This document shows, piece after piece, positions 10,801 through 36,986 of a stretch of DNA of 64,000 nucleotides; position 1 is the stretch's first letter; every line of letters starts with the position of its first letter. The position numbers and the translations under genes were made by a program. The notes under the pieces are model-generated. The model made no database searches. It was not told the DNA's origin and saw nothing but the letters and a program-made list of their open reading frames with translations. The stretch covers positions 44,888,001 to 44,952,000 of the forward strand of contig OX597825.1 of NCBI GenBank assembly GCA_951406725.2, given 5' to 3'. Source of the DNA: Octopus vulgaris (taxonomy: Eukaryota).

Positions 10801-11145
10801 ATATATAAGAAAATAGTAAAGTGTGAAAAAACGACAGAAGGCTTAAATGTTAAAAGATATATATATTTGTGTCAAAATGTCTGGAGAATATTGGAAAAAT
10901 TTTTTTCCTTTCCTTAAAATGACATAATTTTTAAATTTTTAAAGAAATTACCGGTTTCGCGTGTAGCTTTTCAAATTTATTTGAAAAGCTACACGCGAAA
11001 CCGGTAATTTCTTTAAAAATTTAAAAATTATGTCATTTTAAGGAAAGGAAAAAAATTTTTCCAATATTCTCCAGACATTTTGACACAAATATATATATCT
11101 TTTAACATTTAAGCCTTCTGTCGTTTTTTCACACTTTACTATTTT

Positions 11146-11154
<9 letters not shown>
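10801..11154. repeat. Long palindrome (~176-bp arms, 2-nt centre) containing two inverted HHR variants
   Basis: The arms are reverse complements about tcaaat-tt-atttga (centre 10977-10978). Confidence 0.95.
10945..10978 (-). ncRNA. Minimal hammerhead, U3-A8 variant (mirror copy on + at 10979-11010)
   Basis: aaat-TTGAAAA-gc tacac gc-GAAA-CCGG-TA-attt. Confidence 0.7.
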
Positions 11155-12549: not shown

Positions 12550-13554
12550 TAGTAGTGGTGACAGTCATGCTTCACCACTACTACATGCTGGATGGGCCTA
12601 TGTGATAGAGACCCAACGTGGCTATAGTGGCACAATAAGGTCTATGACGAATTATCAAGGAAACTTGATAAACGAAACCGAAGAGATGTGTAAGGTCTTT
12701 CAGGAGCATTTCGCCTTGCTTTTTGAGAGAGGGCGGTGAACCTGAGTGTAGAAGTGACCTCACAGACTTCCTCACCGGTGTGACGCGTCTCTCGAGGAGC
12801 GAGGCAGATCACAGCTATGGAGGTGCAGGAGGCGTTATCGGACTGATTCAAGGACAAGTCACCGGGACTAGATGGTCTCCCCTACTTGTTACAGCATGCT
12901 AGACATGTTTGGGCAGCTTCTGACATACGTCTTCACCAACTGTGACCCGGGGAGTGGTGACGCTGCTTAAAAAGGACCCAAACAAGGGGGATATTATAGA
13001 TAATTTCCGGCCCATCACACTGCTTAACACAGAGTTGAATATTTTGGCTAAGGTATTAGCAAAAAGGTTGGCGTATGTCGTGGGTGGACTCGTCGGAGAG
13101 GTACAAAGTTGTGCGTTCCTGGCAAATCCATACACGACAATCTCCATCTTATACACTACACCATAGAGAGGGTTAACGGGTTTCCTGGCAGGTGTTGTGC
13201 GCTGGTCCAGTTAGATCAGTCAAAAGTTTTTGACAGGGTTGACCACAGGTATCTGGTGTCAGGTTTCGCGGCGTTCGGGCTCGGCCTCGTCCTCTGCGGG
13301 TGGATAATTGCTTTATACAGCAACATCGAATCGATCGTTCAGGTGAACAGTATTTTTTCTCGAAGTCGTTCAACATCAAGTGTTCTGTTCGACAAGGGTG
13401 TCTCCTCCTCCCCTTTCTGTATGTGTTGATCCTGGAGCGTTTACTGCGAAAGTTGGGGGGCTTGAGGGGGGTCCCACGTGATCTAGGTTGTGGAAGGACG
13501 GTTACGGCGTTCGCGGATGACATCATCATCATCGTAGCCAAAGTGGAACACCTA
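12550..13554 (+). mobile_element. L1/Tx1-like LINE RT fragment
   Basis: KSPGLDGLP, VTLLKKDP..DNFRPITLLNTELNILAKVLAKRL, LDQSKVFDRVDHRYL, VRQGC and AFADD across broken frames. Confidence 0.88.
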
Positions 13555-13667
13555 CATTTACCGAATATATGATGAATAAACATTTCCATGTGCTTTGCCG
13601 AGGGGAGCAGATGTCTGTTTGTCTTCGTCAGGTATGTTGGTCGTTTATTTATGATGTGTTCAGAATC

Positions 13668-13732
13668 AGTTCTACTGATGAACATAGATGTATTTGATGC
13701 GTTAAGTGTGAAATCACAGTTGATATAGAACT
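13668..13732 (+). ncRNA. Type I hammerhead ribozyme, copy 1
   Basis: agttcta-CTGATGA-acat a gatgtat ttg atgcgtt aa gtgt-GAAA-TCA cagt TGA-TA-tagaact. 7-bp stem I, canonical core, predicted cleavage after 13725. Confidence 0.92.
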
Positions 13733-14149
13733 AAATTCATTTTTTAAATGTCTTGCTTCGAAAACTGCATTAGGGTACGATTAGTTAAATTTTGGTAGTA
13801 ATGACTTATGTCCCTCTTAGCGTGAGGCATTTATGTGTAATAATGCCCTCTATACAATATAAGTTAATATTTTCAAAAGAAAAAAATTATTTTCGAAGTT
13901 TTTCTCTTATGAGGTTTTTCACGCTAACTACCTGATGATTTCTTGTTAAGTTTCCTTATTAAGAAGTTATCTTTAATTGTTAAATTTATTCCGAAGAAAA
14001 ACTTTTCCTACCATCATGCAGTTCGAGAAAGCCCGCCATTTACCGAATATATGATGAATAAACATTTCCATGTGCTTTGCCGAGGGAAACAGATGTCTGT
14101 TTCACTTCGCCAAGTATGTTGGTCGTTTATTTATGATGTGTTCAGAATC

Positions 14150-14214
14150 AGTTCTACTGATGAACATAGATGTATTTGATGCGTTAAGTGTGAAATCACA
14201 GTTGATATAGAACT
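14150..14214 (+). ncRNA. Type I hammerhead ribozyme, copy 2
   Basis: Identical to copy 1; predicted cleavage after 14207. Confidence 0.92.
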
Positions 14215-14354
14215 AAATTCATTTTTTAAATGTCTTGCTTCGAAAACTGCATTTGGGTACGATTAGTTAAATTTTGGTAGTAATGACTTATGTCCCTCTT
14301 ATCGTGAGGCATTTATGTGTAATAATGCCCTCTATACAATATATATATATAGTT

Positions 14355-16540
14355 AATCCAAACACGAACAAAGAGAAAACACAACAATGCGAGGACGTGG
14401 AACAAGTCTAGTGTTATTGGACGCTCAGAAGAGGAAAGAAAGAAGGAGATTTTAACGTTTCGAGCGGAGCTCTTCGTGAGAAATACAGAAAAAAGGAAAT
14501 GTCCAAGGAAGGGAAGACGGAGAAAGAAAGTCGCCAATGATACACACGCAGTCACATATTGAAATGACCTGAACGGAATGGGTGAAGAAAAAGTTCTTTC
14601 AAAGACAGCAGAGTACAAGAGAAGGAGGTGTGTGTGGGTATGTGTGTGCGCGCAGGTCTGTGTGTGTGTGTGGTTGCGGCTGTTTATCTATGTGTGTGGT
14701 TGGGCTTAGTATACTTTAAAGTCATAGGAAGAATTTATAGTAAGAATTTTGGTTGGAGTGGCTGCTTGTTGTGTGTCTACCTACACATGTGCGTAGGAGA
14801 ATGGTCAGTAGAAGTATGTGTGTCTGCGTGTATGTATATGTAGTGTGTGCATTTTGTTTACAGTGTGTGTATGGGCGTATGCGTGGGGAAGTGTGTGTGT
14901 TGAGAAACTGTACTTTACTCTGTGTATGTGTGTGTGTACATGTATGTATAATTGGATGCGTGTATGTATGAGTGTGTGATGTGTGTGTATAGGAGGTATG
15001 TGTGGGTTCATTTGCGTGTGTGTGTATGTGTATGCGTGTGTATATACACGTGTGTGCGTGTGTACATTTGCGTGTATGTGTGTCTGTGTATTTTGTGTGT
15101 GTGCATGTGTATGTGAATGAGGGGTTATGTAGGAGGTATAGGTGTATTTTTTGCGCATGTATGCATGTGCGTGTGTGTGCGTGTAGCTGTGGGTGCGTGT
15201 ATGTGTGCGTGTGTATGTATGTGTCTATATGTTTATAAGTATGTGTGTGTGTGTTATGCATATATTGTGTGTAAGTATATGTATGTGTGTGTGAATTTGT
15301 GTAGGCGTGTGTTGTGGGGGGTTGTGTGTGGAGTTTGTGTAGGCGTATATGTGCGTATCTGTGTGTATGTGCGTGCGCATGCTTGTGTGCATGTACTTAC
15401 GTGCGTGTGTGCGTGTATGTGCGTGTGTGTTTGTGCCCATGTGTGTCTAATTGTGTGCATGTCTGTATGTGTATTGTGTGTGTTGGAGGTATATGTGCAA
15501 ACATGTGCTAGTGTGTGTGTGTATGTGTGTGATCTTGTATGTGTGTGCATGTGTGTATGTGCGTGTGTGTGTATGAACGTGGAGATGTGTGCATCTTGTT
15601 GCGTATATGCGCGTGTGCTTGAGCATGTATGTGTATGTGGTTGTGTGTACGTTTATGTGTGTCTATAAACGTATGTGTGTGGGTGCGTGGGGTTGTGTGG
15701 GATAGGTATCTGTGCATTTCTGTGCGTGTGCATGTGTGTGTGTACGTTTGTGCACGAGTGTGTGTATACGCGCATATGTGTGTGTGCGCGTGGGTGTATA
15801 TGGATGTGTGTGTATGTATGCGTGTGTGTATGTGTGTGTATATGTGCATGTATGTATGTTGTATGTTTGTGGTGTGTGTGGGAGGTATATGTACGTATGT
15901 GTGTGTATGTGTACGTGTATATAGAAATAAAAGCAATAAATTATAAAAACAATAAAATATAAAAATTAAGGTTGAAAGGAGATAAGGAAGTTAATGCAAT
16001 ATAAAAGGCGCAATTACAAGCAAAAATGAATATAGTTTGCTTTGTAGCAGGATGTGTAGAAGTTTAGTTAGAGGGTTATAGTTGTTCGTAGATTAAAGAT
16101 ACTATTGTTCCAGGTGGAGTGGTGAGTGTGTGGATCCATGGTGTAGAGTGAGGCCAAAGATGAAGATGTTAGAGGGGGAATGGTTGACCAAGCAGAAGTG
16201 ACGAGCGACGGGGGTGTTCGAAAGTAGACGAACATTCCTTAGATGTTCGATGAACCGTTCGGCCAGTCGGCGGTCCATCTGGCCTACATATAGTTTGCCA
16301 CAGAGGTTGCATTTAATACAGTATATGAGGCTAGAAGAGATAAGGAATTTGTTATGCGAAGAGTTTGCTGATTAGAACCAGTGAGAGTAGTGTTGGTGAT
16401 GAAGGGGAAAGTGTTGCAGCGGAATCTGGAGCACGGGAAGGATCCGGATGGGGCTGCGGGGCAAAGGAAAAGGTGCTACGGAGCAGAAGATCGCGTAGGT
16501 TCCGGGCGAGTTTAAAGGAGGACAAGGGTGGGTTGGGGAT
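14355..16540 (-). mobile_element. PLE 3' remnant: GIY-YIG fragment, GT-rich low-complexity tract, pLTR with decayed HHR (14451-14483)
   Basis: ~16200-16335 translates as LIYCIKCNLCGKLYVGQMDRRLAERFIEHLRN. The HHR-like ttt-CTCACGA-a gagc tcc gctc-GAAA-CG-TT-aaa lies downstream on the same strand. Confidence 0.75.
14628..15920. repeat. Degenerate (GT)n-rich low-complexity tract
   Basis: About 1.3 kb of scrambled GT/GC/AT dinucleotides; source of the spurious Cys/Val and His/Thr ORFs. Confidence 0.95.
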
Positions 16541-16544
16541 CAGT

Positions 16545-17775
16545 CCTCAGCCTCCTTTTATCCATCATAGTCCTCCAAGCAATAACAGAGGAAGTCAAGA
16601 CAGGCTACCCCTGTGAGCTCCTCTATGCTGATGACCTTCCTCTAATAGCTGAGTCACTAGCAAAACTAGAGATGAAGTTTTAAGTGTGGAAGCAAGATCT
16701 AGAATCGAAGGGCCTTAGAGTCAATCTAGTAAAAACTCAAGTCCCAGTAAGTAGGAAGGTGGACAAATCACAAACCTCTTCAAGTAGATGGCCCTGCACG
16801 ATCTGTAGATAGAAATTCTATAAAATGTACCCGATGTAAGCTACGGACACATAAAAGGTGCAGTAATATCAAACGAAGGTTAACCGAGAAGATAGTTTTT
16901 GTGAATGGCAGATGCTCAGGGGCAATAAACACTGAAGATGTACAGAAAACAGATTCTATCACATGCCAGGGGGAGAAACTAGAAGTTGTTGATAGCTTCT
17001 GCTATATAGGTAACCAAGTCTGCAGTGGGGTTGGATGCTCTGAGAACATAGCCACTAGACTAATGGGCAAAGTTCAGAAAGCTCCTACCTCTGCTGGTAA
17101 CAAAGGGCCTTTCACTCAGAGTGAAAGATAGACTGTATGATGCACGTGTACGAACAGCCATGCTACAATGCAGTGAAACATGGGCTATGAATGCTGAGGA
17201 CATCGGTAGGCTTGAAAGAAATGAAGTTAGTATGAACCGCTGGATGTGTAATGTCAGTGTGCATATACGACAGAGTGTAAGCGCCCTGAGAGAAATGTTG
17301 GGCATAAGAAACATCAGATGTGATGTGCAAGAGAGACGACTGTGCTGGTATGGTCATGTGCTGCGTATGGATGAGGGAACCCGTGGAAGAGGTAGACCCA
17401 GGAAGACATAGGATGAGGTAGTGAAGCACGACCTTCGAGCGTTGAGCCTTACAGAGGCAATGACAAGAGACCGAGACCTTTGGAGATATGCTGTGATTGA
17501 GAAGACCAGGCAAGTAAAGTGAAATCGCAGCCGTGGCCGATACCAGTCCATTTAAAACTACCCTTGAATCATCGGGCGATACGCTGTGCTTGAGAAGACT
17601 TGTTGAGTCAAGTGAAATCGAAATCGTAGCCAATGATCCGGCAAGTAAAGTCAGATTGCAGCTAGGGCCAATAACTAGCCCATTTAACCAGCATAACCAG
17701 TCCATTTAACAGTAGCTTTAAATCGTCGGGCGATACACTGTGCTTCAGAAGACCTGTTGAGTCAAGTAAAATTGA
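16545..17775 (+). mobile_element. RTE-like LINE 3' fragment with tandemly repeated tail
   Basis: ELLYADDL, LEVVDSFCYIG and RRLCWYGHVLRMDEGTRGRGRPRKT. The motif ctgtg(c/a)tt(g/c)agaagac recurs three times in 17490-17760. Confidence 0.85.
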
Positions 17776-17899: not shown

Positions 17900-19010
17900 A
17901 GGGAGAATTCACAAAACAAAACAAAAGACGAAGACAGGTAGTGTAGACAACAAACTGATGCATTAGTATAACGCTCGGGAAGTGAAAAAGGCTTTAACCT
18001 TTCGAGCCTACGCTCTTTCACAGAAAGGAACACAGAAAGAAACAAGGAGAGAAAATATAGAATGTGTATGGCTAGCGATCTATCATGGCGAAGGCCGGAC
18101 TGAAGGGGCACACAGGAGAGTGCGTGTGCGTGTATGTCTAGGTGTGTAAATGTGGGGTGTGGGTAGGCGGAGGGTGGGGGTAAGTGTGGGGTGTGTGGGT
18201 GTAAGGGGTAGGGTAGCGAGGGATAAGGAAGGATAGGGAAGGTAGGGTTGGAATGTGTAGGGGTGGGGTGGGCTTAAGAGGGAGGGATGACGATGAAGGG
18301 ATGAAGGAGAAGGTGGGTAGGAGTGAAGAGAAAGAAGTAGGAGTTGGCGTAAGAGAGGAGAGGTGGGTGGGAGGATGTAGATGTGAGAGGGAGAGAGGCG
18401 AGAGGAGGAGGTTAGATGAGGAGGGGAGGAGAGTTGAACCCATGTGGGGCAAAGGAGAGAAGAGAGAAGATTCATCACTGTTCACGGCGCAAGCGGGAGT
18501 CCTGATGGCCCCTGTGGAAGGACAGTCCGAACACGGACAGGTGTTGCAAAGAGTTACCGGTAGAGCGGAAATGGCGCGAGACCGGGATGTCATTACCGAG
18601 TAGAATGTCTCGGAGTGTTCCGCGAACCGGTCAGCCAAGCGGCGTCCCGTTTGCCCGATGTATAGAGAATGGCAGAAAGAGCAGGAGATGCAGTAGATGA
18701 TATTGGTAGAAGTGTAGGGGAAGGAGTCGGTGATATGATAGGGTCGATGATGGGTGCCGGTGAGAAGGGTGGTGTTGGAGAGGTAAGGGCAAGTGCGGCA
18801 GCGTTGGCGGGAGCAGGGGAACGAGCCGGGTTGGGAGGTTGGGTTAGGGAAGAAGCTGTGGACCAAGAGGTCTCGTAGGTTGTGAACTCGTTTGGAGGGG
18901 AGGGGTCGGTTAGGGAAGATGTGCGAAGTGAAGGGGTCGGACTGGAGTCGCCGGAAGGCTTGGAGAATGATGCGTTGGAGGGGTAGGGTGGTAGGGTGGT
19001 AGGTGAGGGG
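17900..19010 (-). mobile_element. PLE 3' remnant (GIY-YIG endonuclease plus pLTR with decayed HHR-like motif at 17993-18026)
   Basis: ORF 18138-19097 gives CSRQRCRTCPY...NIIYCISCSFCHSLYIGQTGRRLADRFAEH. The pLTR resembles 14355-14600. Confidence 0.88.
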
Positions 19011-19072
19011 AAATATATATATATATGTATGTATGTATGTATATGGATCAAAACTGTTTGATTGAAATTCGT

Positions 19073-19113
19073 TGGTACTCTTGAGTTTCAAGCGCAATGT
19101 AAGTCGTCAGCCA
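19073..19113 (-). ncRNA. Hammerhead motif with degenerate stem II
   Basis: tgg-CTGACGA-cttacattgcgctt-GAAA-CTC AA GAG-TA-cca, between microsatellites. Confidence 0.6.
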
Positions 19114-33332: not shown

Positions 33333-36300
33333 ATAAGGAACAATTTTCATTTTGGAATATGATAAAAAATAACAATAAAGCAGAAATTTACAAAAAATGG
33401 ATTAACTCAACACCTTTAATTTCACGCAAATTTCAAATTAAACTAATCCCAGAAGAACCAGAACAGCAAGGAAAACTTAGGGAGAAATTAGCATTAGAAA
33501 AATTAAAAATAGAAATTGAGTTACTCAAACTCAGAGCATCGAATAACGAACAAAAATACAAAAAGATTGATGAGGAAATGCACACTGAACTCACCAAACA
33601 AGCTGAGGAACAACTTTTGGAAAGTGTTATAAAACTATGGAAAGACAGCTGTGAGACGGAAGAAATAAACTCCCTGCAACGATGGGGAAACAGTATTAAC
33701 TTCTTTCTCAATTATGAAGTTCAATTTAAAAGAGACTACACTTGAGATAACCCCTTCATAAAAAAATCTAGAACAAATGCATCTACACAAATAAATGCAC
33801 ATCCACCTAGATCAAACAATCAAAATCCAAAAGAACACAAACACAGAAAAGTAACCCAGCGCCTAGAAGTAAATCATTCTCTATCTAATAACAGGAACTA
33901 CTCGCTAATTAGAAACACTAGAAGAAACCAGCCTAGAGTAAGGAGTGATAATTTTTTCTACCCAGCATCTAGAAATATATGAGACCCGCTTTACCCCTCA
34001 ATGAAGAAACAACATAATTAAGCACCCCAAAAATTCATTCCAACAAAGAAATCCTAACCACGTGCTCCCAACCAGCTTACCCAGGCAGCAACACCAACCC
34101 CTCAGCAACCCGAATATGATAAGTACTAATAATACTGATTTAATTAATAACAATAATAACACAAATAATAAATTCTACCAACCGAACTACAATCAACATT
34201 TTTTAGACCAAGTGGAGAGAAACAGGGACACACATTGGAACAAAGCGTACAGGAGAAACCCAAAGTCATTAACTTATCAAAGCAAATTCTATCCATAACA
34301 AAAATCAATATACTAGCCAAAGGTTTAAAGCTCACTCCAACCCCACGAAGAGCTAACCAAAATGAAATTAAAGACAATATTTCGGAATTCCGCAGAAAAC
34401 TACTACTCACAGAAGCACTAACTGACTACGACAATGAAGATGAATCACTAGTCAAAAACAGAAGTAATTACCTTCCACATAAGGGTAGGAATAAAACACT
34501 GGATAACTTCTGCAACCATATCCAAAATTTCCCCTACACATCCATTAAATGAAAAATTAATCCTAACCTCAACAATCTAGAATGGAAAAATCTGACTGAA
34601 CTACAAAACGACAAAGACCTGACAATTAAAGAAGCTGACAAAGGAAGTGCTGTAGTTCTGATGGACACAGAACACTATAAAAAACTAGTACTTTCCATAC
34701 TAGAAAACGAGGCCTTCTACAAAAAAGTTATAAACTATAAACAACAAAAAACAATGAAAAATCTTGCATCCTTAATTCTTCTACATGGAAAAGGCCTGTT
34801 AGAAAAAGAAACAGACTACATCACAAACTTCAAATGTAAACCCAGTCTCCCTAAAATACACAAGAGCAAGATAATCAATGAAGCCTGCAAACAATCACCA
34901 GGCAAATATATAAATATCCAAACGCCAGAAGACTTGACTTTAAGATCCATTGTAGCTGGGCCGGCCTGTGAAACCCACCAACTAAGCAATTTTCTAGACA
35001 TCCTACTGAAACCGTTGCTGAAATACATCAAAAGCTTCATTAGGGATGATTTAGACATGCTAGAACACCTACCAAAAACAATTAATGAAGAGGCAATATT
35101 GGTTACCCTCGATGTTATCAATCTTTACACCAACATCCCCCATGATTATGGAATAAAAGCAATGAAATTTTGGTTGGAAAAGTACCCCAAAGTCCTCCCG
35201 GAACACATAAACCAGATCTTTATTATTGAATCCTTAAAATTTATACTTCAGAACAATTATTTCCTATTTGATGACATATACTATTGTCAGAAATGCGGAA
35301 TTGTGATGGGGACAGAAGCAGCTCCTGTTCTTGCAAACCTAATAATGGGTTATTTTGAATTCTCCTTATATGAAGTATCACTTCAGAAATATGGTTACCC
35401 ATTTTACCTCTACATAAGAGAAAATTGGAAGAGATACCTAGATGACTGCTTTATCATCTGGAAGGAGAACATCAACAAACTTTTGGATTTCAAAACAACA
35501 CTAAATGACATAAATAGTAACATTCAATTCACAATGGAATATAACAAAGAACAACTCCCATTTCTAGACATCATGATAAAAAAAGTTAACAATGAAATAA
35601 TAACTGACATTTATTATAAACCAACTGATTCAAAACAATATCTTCTCTTTAACTCATGCCACCCAAAACACATCAAAATAAACATCCCTTTCAACTTAGC
35701 AAAACGAATCTGCACAATAATGTTGGATAGAACAACTCGAGACTTTCGTCTTCAAGACCTCAAAACAACACTTATTAAAAGACAATATCCACCCTCTCTT
35801 ATCGACGAGGGAATTAAACGTGCCAAACAATTAGACACCAAAACACTAAGAACAAAAAAACATAACACTACACCTCAACTCAAAACAGTGAGGCATTCAA
35901 CACTATTGTGCAAACTCTTCCTTTACTAACTAGAGATCCAAAAATGAACGACATCCTGAAAACACGCAAACTCATCAAATGCAAAAAACAAGATAAATCG
36001 CTAAACAAATGCGAAGTTTTACAAAACAACCACGAAACCAACGGTTGAAAAATGTGGACGCCAAAACTGTGGAACCTGCCCCAACCTGCTTGAAGGCTCG
36101 GATTTTCTTTTCAAACAAGGACAGAGGTTCACAATTAAAACTAGTTTCACTTGTGCCTCTGAGAACCTAATTTATGTAATAACCTGCTCGGGTTGTGGAC
36201 ACCACTATATTGGACAAACGAGTATAACCTTGAAAAAGAGAACCACTCTACATAAGGAGCAAATCCGTTTCCTGCAATACAAACAAATTCCTCTCAGTGA

Positions 36301-36885
36301 ACATATAGAAAAATGTGCAGGTAACATCAAACCAAATTTCACAGTCTTCCCTTTCTACCAGTGCAAAGACGCAATCTCTCAACTAGAACATTTAAATAAA
36401 GAAGCCTTTTTCATTGAAAAATACAAAACACGTCTTAATATGCACGCATAACCAACTTTTATCTTTTTATATATTTCAATTCACGATTACATTGTACATA
36501 AATCCCCTACTAAACAAGGTTTTTGAAACTTGTCTCTGTCTGTACACTTATATAATCCCCACCCATTACCGAAAGCTGAACAGTTATCTCCCTTAACCAC
36601 AACAATAACAATAATAACGACAACCAATTACCTCCCTTTATTTATCTACTTGTGAAGTCATTCACTCGTGAATTTCATCACACACAACATGGACCAAATT
36701 TCTTCTTAAGAAAAAATATATATTCAAATAAGTAAAACATAATATCATGAATAGCGATAGCGAAACCGGGCGATATATTAAAAATTATATTAAAACTATG
36801 TAAGTGTGTGTATTTTCCTTTTTTAATTTCTTATATACATTACAACTCACCATGTGGGGATAATTGAAATTCTTCTTTTCTGTTA
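33333..36885 (+). mobile_element. Near-complete Penelope-like element (Neptune-like): upstream coiled-coil region, RT, GIY-YIG, pLTR
   Basis: ORFs 34235-34552 and 34661-35929 (LDVINLYTNIP, GIVMGT, RYLDD, LPFLD, SCHPKH); linker CGRQNCGTCP; NLIYVITCSGCGHHYIGQT; terminal HHR-like motif; ends at (TAC)n(TA)n. Confidence 0.95.
36742..36776 (+). ncRNA. Minimal hammerhead, A3-U8 variant with mutated U16.1
   Basis: atatc-ATGAATA-gc gata gc-GAAA-CCGG-GC-gatat. Confidence 0.65.
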
Positions 36886-36898
36886 CTACTACTACTAC

Positions 36899-36986
<88 letters not shown>

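Follow-up and report, generated by a model that had tools for sequence, protein, structure and literature searches.

A dispersed hammerhead retrozyme of Octopus vulgaris whose paired insertion ends point to PLE-mediated mobilisation

Two identical hammerhead motifs lie in a non-coding part of a 64,000-nucleotide stretch of Octopus vulgaris DNA (hereafter the window), and the question they raise is what kind of element carries them and how it came to be inserted there. The assembly itself consists of 2.8 Gb in ~30 large contigs with a heavy load of TA and CA microsatellites. The original prediction had described a retrozyme-like cassette of two repeats that might borrow PLE machinery. Based on the analysis below, it seems likely that the locus is an insertion of a dispersed, non-coding, hammerhead-bearing non-LTR retrozyme of 482 nt, probably copied into (TA)n in trans by a PLE reverse transcriptase (RT) and GIY-YIG endonuclease. 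We put the probability of this reading at roughly four in five.

The two repeats proved to be much as predicted (~306 bp), measuring 307 bp with 8 mismatches and a period of 482. Their interpretation as a two-repeat cassette had to be replaced: the locus holds 1.64 turns of one continuous 482-nt unit (Table 1; unit positions are given as q), the apparent repeats are the overlap of that unit, and q482 flows into q1 in many copies. The insertion is a single 789-nt arm, with its 3' end at the point we call site A inside a (TA)6 tract. As predicted, no ORF belongs to the unit among the listed frames of at least 120 aa; the only one to overlap it is an antisense stop-to-stop frame (13173-13730) that also covers the left flank. 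The predicted monomer folds well beyond its shuffles (z -7.2 linear, -6.5 circular), and the self-pairing of a sister family, described below, gives z -2.7. Low GC, a non-coding unit of a few hundred nt and head-to-tail copies, all features of retrozymes, are present. A search of a plasmid collection gave no match to the unit.

Table 1. Features of the retrozyme locus and its flanks (positions in the window; q1 = 13555)
Feature	Positions	Strand	Basis or remark
Left flank, outside the element: decayed multicopy LINE RT, broken at the junction	12600..13554	+	2-nt microhomology
Single retrozyme insertion, 1.64 turns of the 482-nt non-coding unit	13555..14343	+	Repeat and copy mapping
First copy of the 307-bp repeat (q1-307)	13555..13861	+	
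Hammerhead 1: extended stem I, core 13675-13681, two-part stem II 13682-13709, GAAA 13710-13713, stem III 13713-13724	13663..13738	+	Predicted cut after 13725
Predicted self-excised 482-nt monomer, strongly self-paired	13726..14207	+	Fold z-scores
Site B, second fixed 3' end of the family (q430-435)	13984..13989	+	Read through at the locus
Second copy of the 307-bp repeat, 97.4% identical, finishing at site A	14037..14343	+	
Hammerhead 2, identical to hammerhead 1	14145..14220	+	Predicted cut after 14207
Site A, q300-319 in the family (mostly 307/316)	14336..14343	+	3' end of the locus, merges into (TA)n
(TA)6 target tract, common to the insertion and the 3' end of the neighbouring PLE	14340..14351	.	
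Right flank, outside the element: 5'-truncated PLE, frameshifted GIY-YIG at 16243-16556	14352..16556	-	

The claim that each repeat carries an identical canonical type I hammerhead held up. CUGAUGA lies at 13675 and 14157, with a stem I of 7 bp, a stem II region of 28 nt whose basal part has 4 bp, GAAA, a 4-bp stem III and an AUA site, and these two ribozymes were the sole matches of a strict type I scan of both strands of the 64-kb window. The minimal hammerheads that had been placed nearby have non-canonical cores and failed the same scan. A covariance-model scan, proposed as a check, gave nothing: the Rfam models miss the locus hammerheads both at gathering score and at E<=10. Rfam being silent, we take the fold as real because of covariation across the family. 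In 24 diverse members, picked by hand (six further candidates without a match to the extraction pattern were excluded), 93% of cells pair and two-sided changes are seen in 10 of 23 pairs; such changes affect 5 of the 6 stem I pairs, and stem III is almost invariant. None of 500 shuffles scored as high, and slid controls paired at 26-44%; kinship inflates covariation scores, and the slid control retains it. Stems I and II carry compensatory changes between diverged subfamilies, an argument for structural selection on the ribozyme fold.

The suggestion that the 4-bp stem III may allow monomeric cleavage now looks doubtful. As a hairpin it is marginal in the aligned members (computed dG +0.3 to +2.6, with ~+0.3 at the locus), and the predicted minimum-energy fold pairs the core with stem III at ~3 kcal/mol below the hammerhead fold. 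In 23 of the 24 members the 12 nt of stem III form a palindrome, perfect or nearly so, whose self-duplex dG is -6.8 to -15.8 kcal/mol; the locus alone breaks it, through a private loop change (self-duplex dG -2.4). Given this palindrome, the marginal hairpin and the precedent of axolotl retrozymes, in which dimer-assisted hammerhead cleavage has been demonstrated (PMC7229834), dimer-assisted cleavage appears at least as likely as monomeric cleavage, and the locus copy may be weak in cleavage. Cleavage may be dispensable, since the core is altered or the stems are weak in some subfamilies and in a 7.5-unit array. Eight of nine Xenopus dimers are reported without cleavage in vitro (bioRxiv 10.64898/2026.07.22.740005).

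The unit belongs to a large family. Searching the genome with it gave 92 matches from the best 40 of 2,171 candidates, and a family 20-mer has 1,414 exact genome matches (control 0), which points to about 1,000 dispersed copies. A 22-mer from the 3' half of the ribozyme has 94 exact matches in its family version, and the locus version is unique to the locus. A sister family (L175-L194) has a 498-nt unit, 66% identical to the 482-nt unit and with the same layout; it is younger, its copies are 97-100% alike, and its stem III is a perfect palindrome. A fragment of a third relative was found at L038. Tandem loci include 2.2-mers and a 7.5-unit array (L093:2431-6061) with units 99.2-100% alike, which begins at about the ribozyme cut site and finishes at site B, between TA tracts; all seven of its ribozymes have one altered core and a shortened stem III. 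The original description is thus borne out, also by the genome-wide copy-number check that it had called for: the unit is of retrozyme type, lacks coding sequence, bears a type I hammerhead and occurs in many copies, in 1.x-mer and tandem layouts. We saw no clear A>G bias of the kind left by RNA editing: private A>G changes numbered 34 against 32 T>C in family 1, and in family 2 the counts were 7 and 4. No earlier description of such a family in cephalopods was found in literature searches; Repbase/Dfam, subscription papers and supplements lay outside the search, so that the family may already stand there as an unnamed repeat. The main text of an octopus repeat-annotation paper contains neither 'hammerhead' nor 'ribozyme' (PMC13282606).

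To see how the unit inserts, we mapped 158 distinct insertions, with duplicates merged. Of these, 63 are every insertion on one contig (C1) with an exact 20-mer, and the remainder, selected for similarity or for a match to the ribozyme 22-mer, over-represent long copies. The outward 3' ends fall at site A or at a second point, site B, in 221 of 232 cases and adjoin (TA)n in 222 of 232. The two sites are ~125 nt apart; site B was binned as q395-441 and is mostly 435, the ends at 399 belonging to an older subfamily whose alignment drops early. Site A would be a start of reverse transcription. Nearly half of the insertions (74/158) are two-armed and head-to-head, and these comprise 64 A+B, 1 B+B, 0 A+A and 9 with one unclassified end, so that 64 of 65 classifiable pairs join A to B (binomial p ~2e-18). 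The same pairing is seen in 23 of 24 two-armed insertions in the C1 subset, chosen only by the 20-mer, and in the sister family, where 19 loci read by eye gave 9 A+B, 0 same-class and 2 unclassified (9/9 classifiable). The 84 single arms finish at A (43), at B (39) or elsewhere (2).

The 5' ends of the arms, by comparison with these fixed ends, are scattered and variable. The ribozyme cut site is crossed by 34 of the 87 C1 arms, 4 of them crossing it twice, and shows no pile-up of 5' ends: 8 of the 87 stop at q164-180, equal to the next 17 nt. In all, 37 arms are longer than one unit and wrap head-to-tail into the unit. Within pairs, the two 5' ends lie <=10 nt apart in 16 of 74 insertions against 4.4 expected (maximum 13 in 2,000 permutations). 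Arms within one insertion are also more alike (median 97.9%) than they are to other copies (median 90.5%; 39 comparisons, from 38 two-armed insertions and the locus), suggesting that both usually derive from the same subfamily. Four two-armed insertions (L104, L126, L130 and L020) have arms less alike than each is to other copies, which suggests two different RNA templates in one event.

Two fixed ends, A+B inversions and (TA)n together form the tail and inversion signature of PLEs, and on this basis the retrozyme is very likely PLE-mobilised. The dependence on PLE machinery that had been proposed thus gains direct support from insertion anatomy. The Poseidon PLE protein of Anolis, once purified, cleaves both strands of AT-rich DNA and extends both; its reverse transcription begins at two internal sites, which mark the limits of the tail found in the genome, and it is predicted to be a dimer (PMC11167929). 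In published descriptions, PLE insertions contain a truncated copy in inverted orientation, and the tail is often confined to one end (PMC8557442, PMC3846280).

The flanks at the locus are both remnants of other elements. For the LINE on the left, which we take to be L1/Tx1-like, no continuation was found in the 64-kb window, and seven other copies of it lack the unit. The PLE on the right lies tail-to-tail with the insertion and has a microsatellite-rich UTR with a minimal hammerhead-like motif near 14450-14483; judging from the layout of related copies, UTR and GIY-YIG would be continuous. Within the window, 14352-14620 (-) and 17900-19106 (-) are ends of an abundant PLE group whose minimal hammerhead-like motif has a non-canonical core. 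A near-complete, decayed PLE with RT, GIY-YIG and an upstream CxxC linker occupies 34172-36900 (+), and its autonomous family, like the retrozyme, ends in (TA)n at two points, here ~56 nt apart. At 10801-10976 and 10979-11154 a perfect 176-nt inverted repeat with a 2-nt spacer sits between TA tracts; it resembles a folded-back element end, or may be an artefact.

In contigs from runs that we guess to be RNA, parts of the unit are represented at low depth; such contigs cannot show ends, strand or circles, and no informative joint was found in them. Coverage of the PLE part at 14352-14500 by such contigs exceeds that of the retrozyme by a factor of hundreds. The 14207>13726 junction suggested as a sign of circular RNA is itself genomic sequence, so a junction of this kind cannot prove a circle.

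We also searched for a partner PLE that shares sequence with the unit. In none of the copies examined did the unit form the pLTR of an RT/GIY-YIG element or continue 5' into common coding sequence; the concern that copies might always be attached to such sequence was not realised in this sample. Among 90 PLE loci with 1.5-kb flanks, drawn by three PLE searches from a genome with thousands of PLE fragments, there was no unit-homologous end. Matches near PLE loci at L242 and L038 are separate insertions of family relatives, and one at L258 is an AT-rich chance match; none is a partner end. A young PLE family (L241, L246 and others) with many equal-scoring copies and intact 781-aa frames is a candidate active helper, and showed no sequence match to the unit. 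At one copy (L064:380-1651) the 5' end (q371) joins a PLE 3' UTR with no TA tract at the junction, and beyond the copy this UTR is not taken up again; either sequence would have been deleted as the copy inserted, or the template would have switched between the RNAs of retrozyme and PLE.

These observations can be combined into a model of the insertion. A PLE protein, probably as a dimer, would cut both strands of (TA)n, and the two 3'-OH ends would prime on the RNA, one at A and the other at B. The two cDNAs would then join head-to-head; alternatively, one arm would be lost and the other would join the far flank by microhomology, as appears to have happened at the locus. Because arms read through the cut site, the RNA that was copied had either been ligated into a circle or was a multimer that had escaped cleavage. 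Selection on the ribozyme speaks for the circle, as does the need to restore length, and we lean slightly towards a scheme in which the hammerhead cuts multimeric transcripts, the monomers are ligated into circles, and reverse transcription around a circle yields arms of more than one unit. Cleavage is predicted to be aided by dimerisation through the palindromic stem III that the locus copy has lost. More tentatively, and at somewhat less than even odds, PLE integration in general may be an asymmetric double priming, in which the break ends in (TA)n are obligatorily primed at A and B and a circular, ribozyme-made RNA without detected helper homology supplies both sites and is copied by rolling circle. 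Several points count against the preferred reading of PLE-mediated insertion. In vitro, Poseidon PAc showed no difference in start site between the strands, could prime in the absence of homology and worked without hammerhead cleavage (PMC11167929). The published PLE tail is 30-40 bp against an A-B distance of ~125 nt. The lack of a pLTR-type match among the 90 PLE loci also counts against this reading, and differs from Xenopus retrozymes and non-autonomous Chlamys elements, which share sequence with autonomous ends.

The same PLE-mediated insertion could instead have used an uncleaved linear multimer from tandem master loci, with circles absent or a by-product, and we regard this as a real possibility though well short of even odds. 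Tandem loci of the kind required do exist (the 7.5-mer and the 2.2-mers), PAc uses unprocessed RNA in vitro (PMC11167929), and the computed minimum-energy fold sequesters the catalytic core. Yet the compensatory changes in stems I and II argue for a selected ribozyme fold, 1.x-mer lineages would be expected to shorten at each generation unless length were regenerated, and the 7.5-unit array itself runs from about the cut site to B, between TA tracts. It is much less probable that the unit is the pLTR of an unsampled autonomous PLE and its copies 5'-truncated remains. The ends, inversions and target are the same as those of PLEs, and our sample covers 158 of ~1,000 insertions and 90 PLE loci; but arms longer than one unit wrap into the unit itself, the sole common 5' flanks of the 84 single-armed copies are diverged unit sequence, PLE protein matches near copies vary in distance and orientation, and the UTR junction at L064 is a single, chance-like case.

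Mobilisation by a LINE through twin priming, to which the position of the left junction within a LINE RT might point, is very improbable. Twin-priming inversions of L1 are not known to have arms that overlap in sequence. Here the two arms overlap, there is neither poly(A) nor a 3' terminus at the unit end, and the unit is missing from the other copies of that LINE examined; the fixed internal ends in (TA)n largely refute this explanation. Nor do we give any real weight to the idea that the locus is a lone duplication or an assembly artefact whose ribozyme-like motif arose by chance, for which one could cite the restriction of the locus 22-mer to this site and the silence of Rfam. The two repeats differ at 8 positions, the ribozyme covaries, and as to copy number the idea of a single-locus duplication is overturned by the 92 search matches and by the exact matches of the 20-mer and of the family version of the 22-mer. 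PLE-mediated insertion of a dispersed retrozyme thus remains the preferred reading.

With metazoan non-LTR retrozymes (Cervera and de la Pena 2020, PMC7229834) the octopus unit shares its non-coding, AT-rich and self-paired nature, the type I hammerhead and head-to-tail copies. Such retrozymes are known in a mollusc (mussel, 350-390 nt), and their mobilisation by PLEs was proposed from co-occurrence (PMC7229834). The octopus units are longer (482-498 nt) and known from sequence, whereas circRNA has been shown for those retrozymes; they are mostly dispersed as copies from sub-unit to two units, with inverted arms in (TA)n, rather than in long arrays; and they have fixed A/B ends, of which no description was found in the portion of that article available. 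The two consecutive hammerhead units of the locus fit the definition of an 'active retrozyme' given by Li, Clavereau, Pollet 2026 (bioRxiv 10.64898/2026.07.22.740005), and the unit length lies within their 51-972 bp and likewise co-occurs with PLEs. Their evidence, from 35 species with no mollusc class listed in the part of the preprint available, is pLTR homology and co-occurrence, Xenopus retrozymes sharing sequence with autonomous PLE ends. The octopus unit showed no pLTR homology in the loci searched, and here the argument comes from the anatomy of its insertions.

Features in common with EN+ PLEs, namely Poseidon PAc (Frangieh 2024, PMC11167929), Neptune/Naiad (Craig 2021, PMC8557442) and Adineta Penelope (PMC3846280), are 5' truncation, partial tandems, a head-to-head inverted copy, an optional one-end tail, an AT-rich or (TA)n target and two internal RT starts. 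The octopus unit differs from them in having no ORF, a tail of ~125 nt against 30-40 bp, and an extended hammerhead with a 4-bp stem III where EN+ PLEs have the minimal form. Non-autonomy and head-to-tail copies are shared with the non-autonomous Chlamys elements (MRC1, PMC8557442); the latter, however, have 3' sequence in common with autonomous partners, and canonical hammerheads are described, in the text available, as lacking from the Naiad/Chlamys group (PMC8557442). A plant-type LTR retrozyme (true LTRs, type III hammerhead, PBS/PPT, 4-bp TSD) differs in topology, the octopus hammerhead being type I, and in that the octopus unit is continuous. Judged by its sequence, then, the unit has every testable feature of a metazoan non-LTR retrozyme and the structural features of a non-autonomous PLE, partner homology apart.

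The class, a hammerhead retrozyme in a mollusc, is already known, and the single locus is ordinary. Both the route by which PLEs form tandem and inverted insertions and the PLE mobilisation of animal retrozymes are stated as open in the available text of PMC8557442, PMC11167929, PMC7229834 and bioRxiv 10.64898/2026.07.22.740005, and on these the octopus family offers ~1,000 insertion scars, each short and readable in full. With A and B paired almost without exception, 'tail often at one end only' becomes a countable rule that can be tested in vitro. If asymmetric double priming is true, it would give one rule for the tail, for head-to-head inversions and for pLTR formation, and a 480-nt RNA would be a minimal substrate on which to test it.
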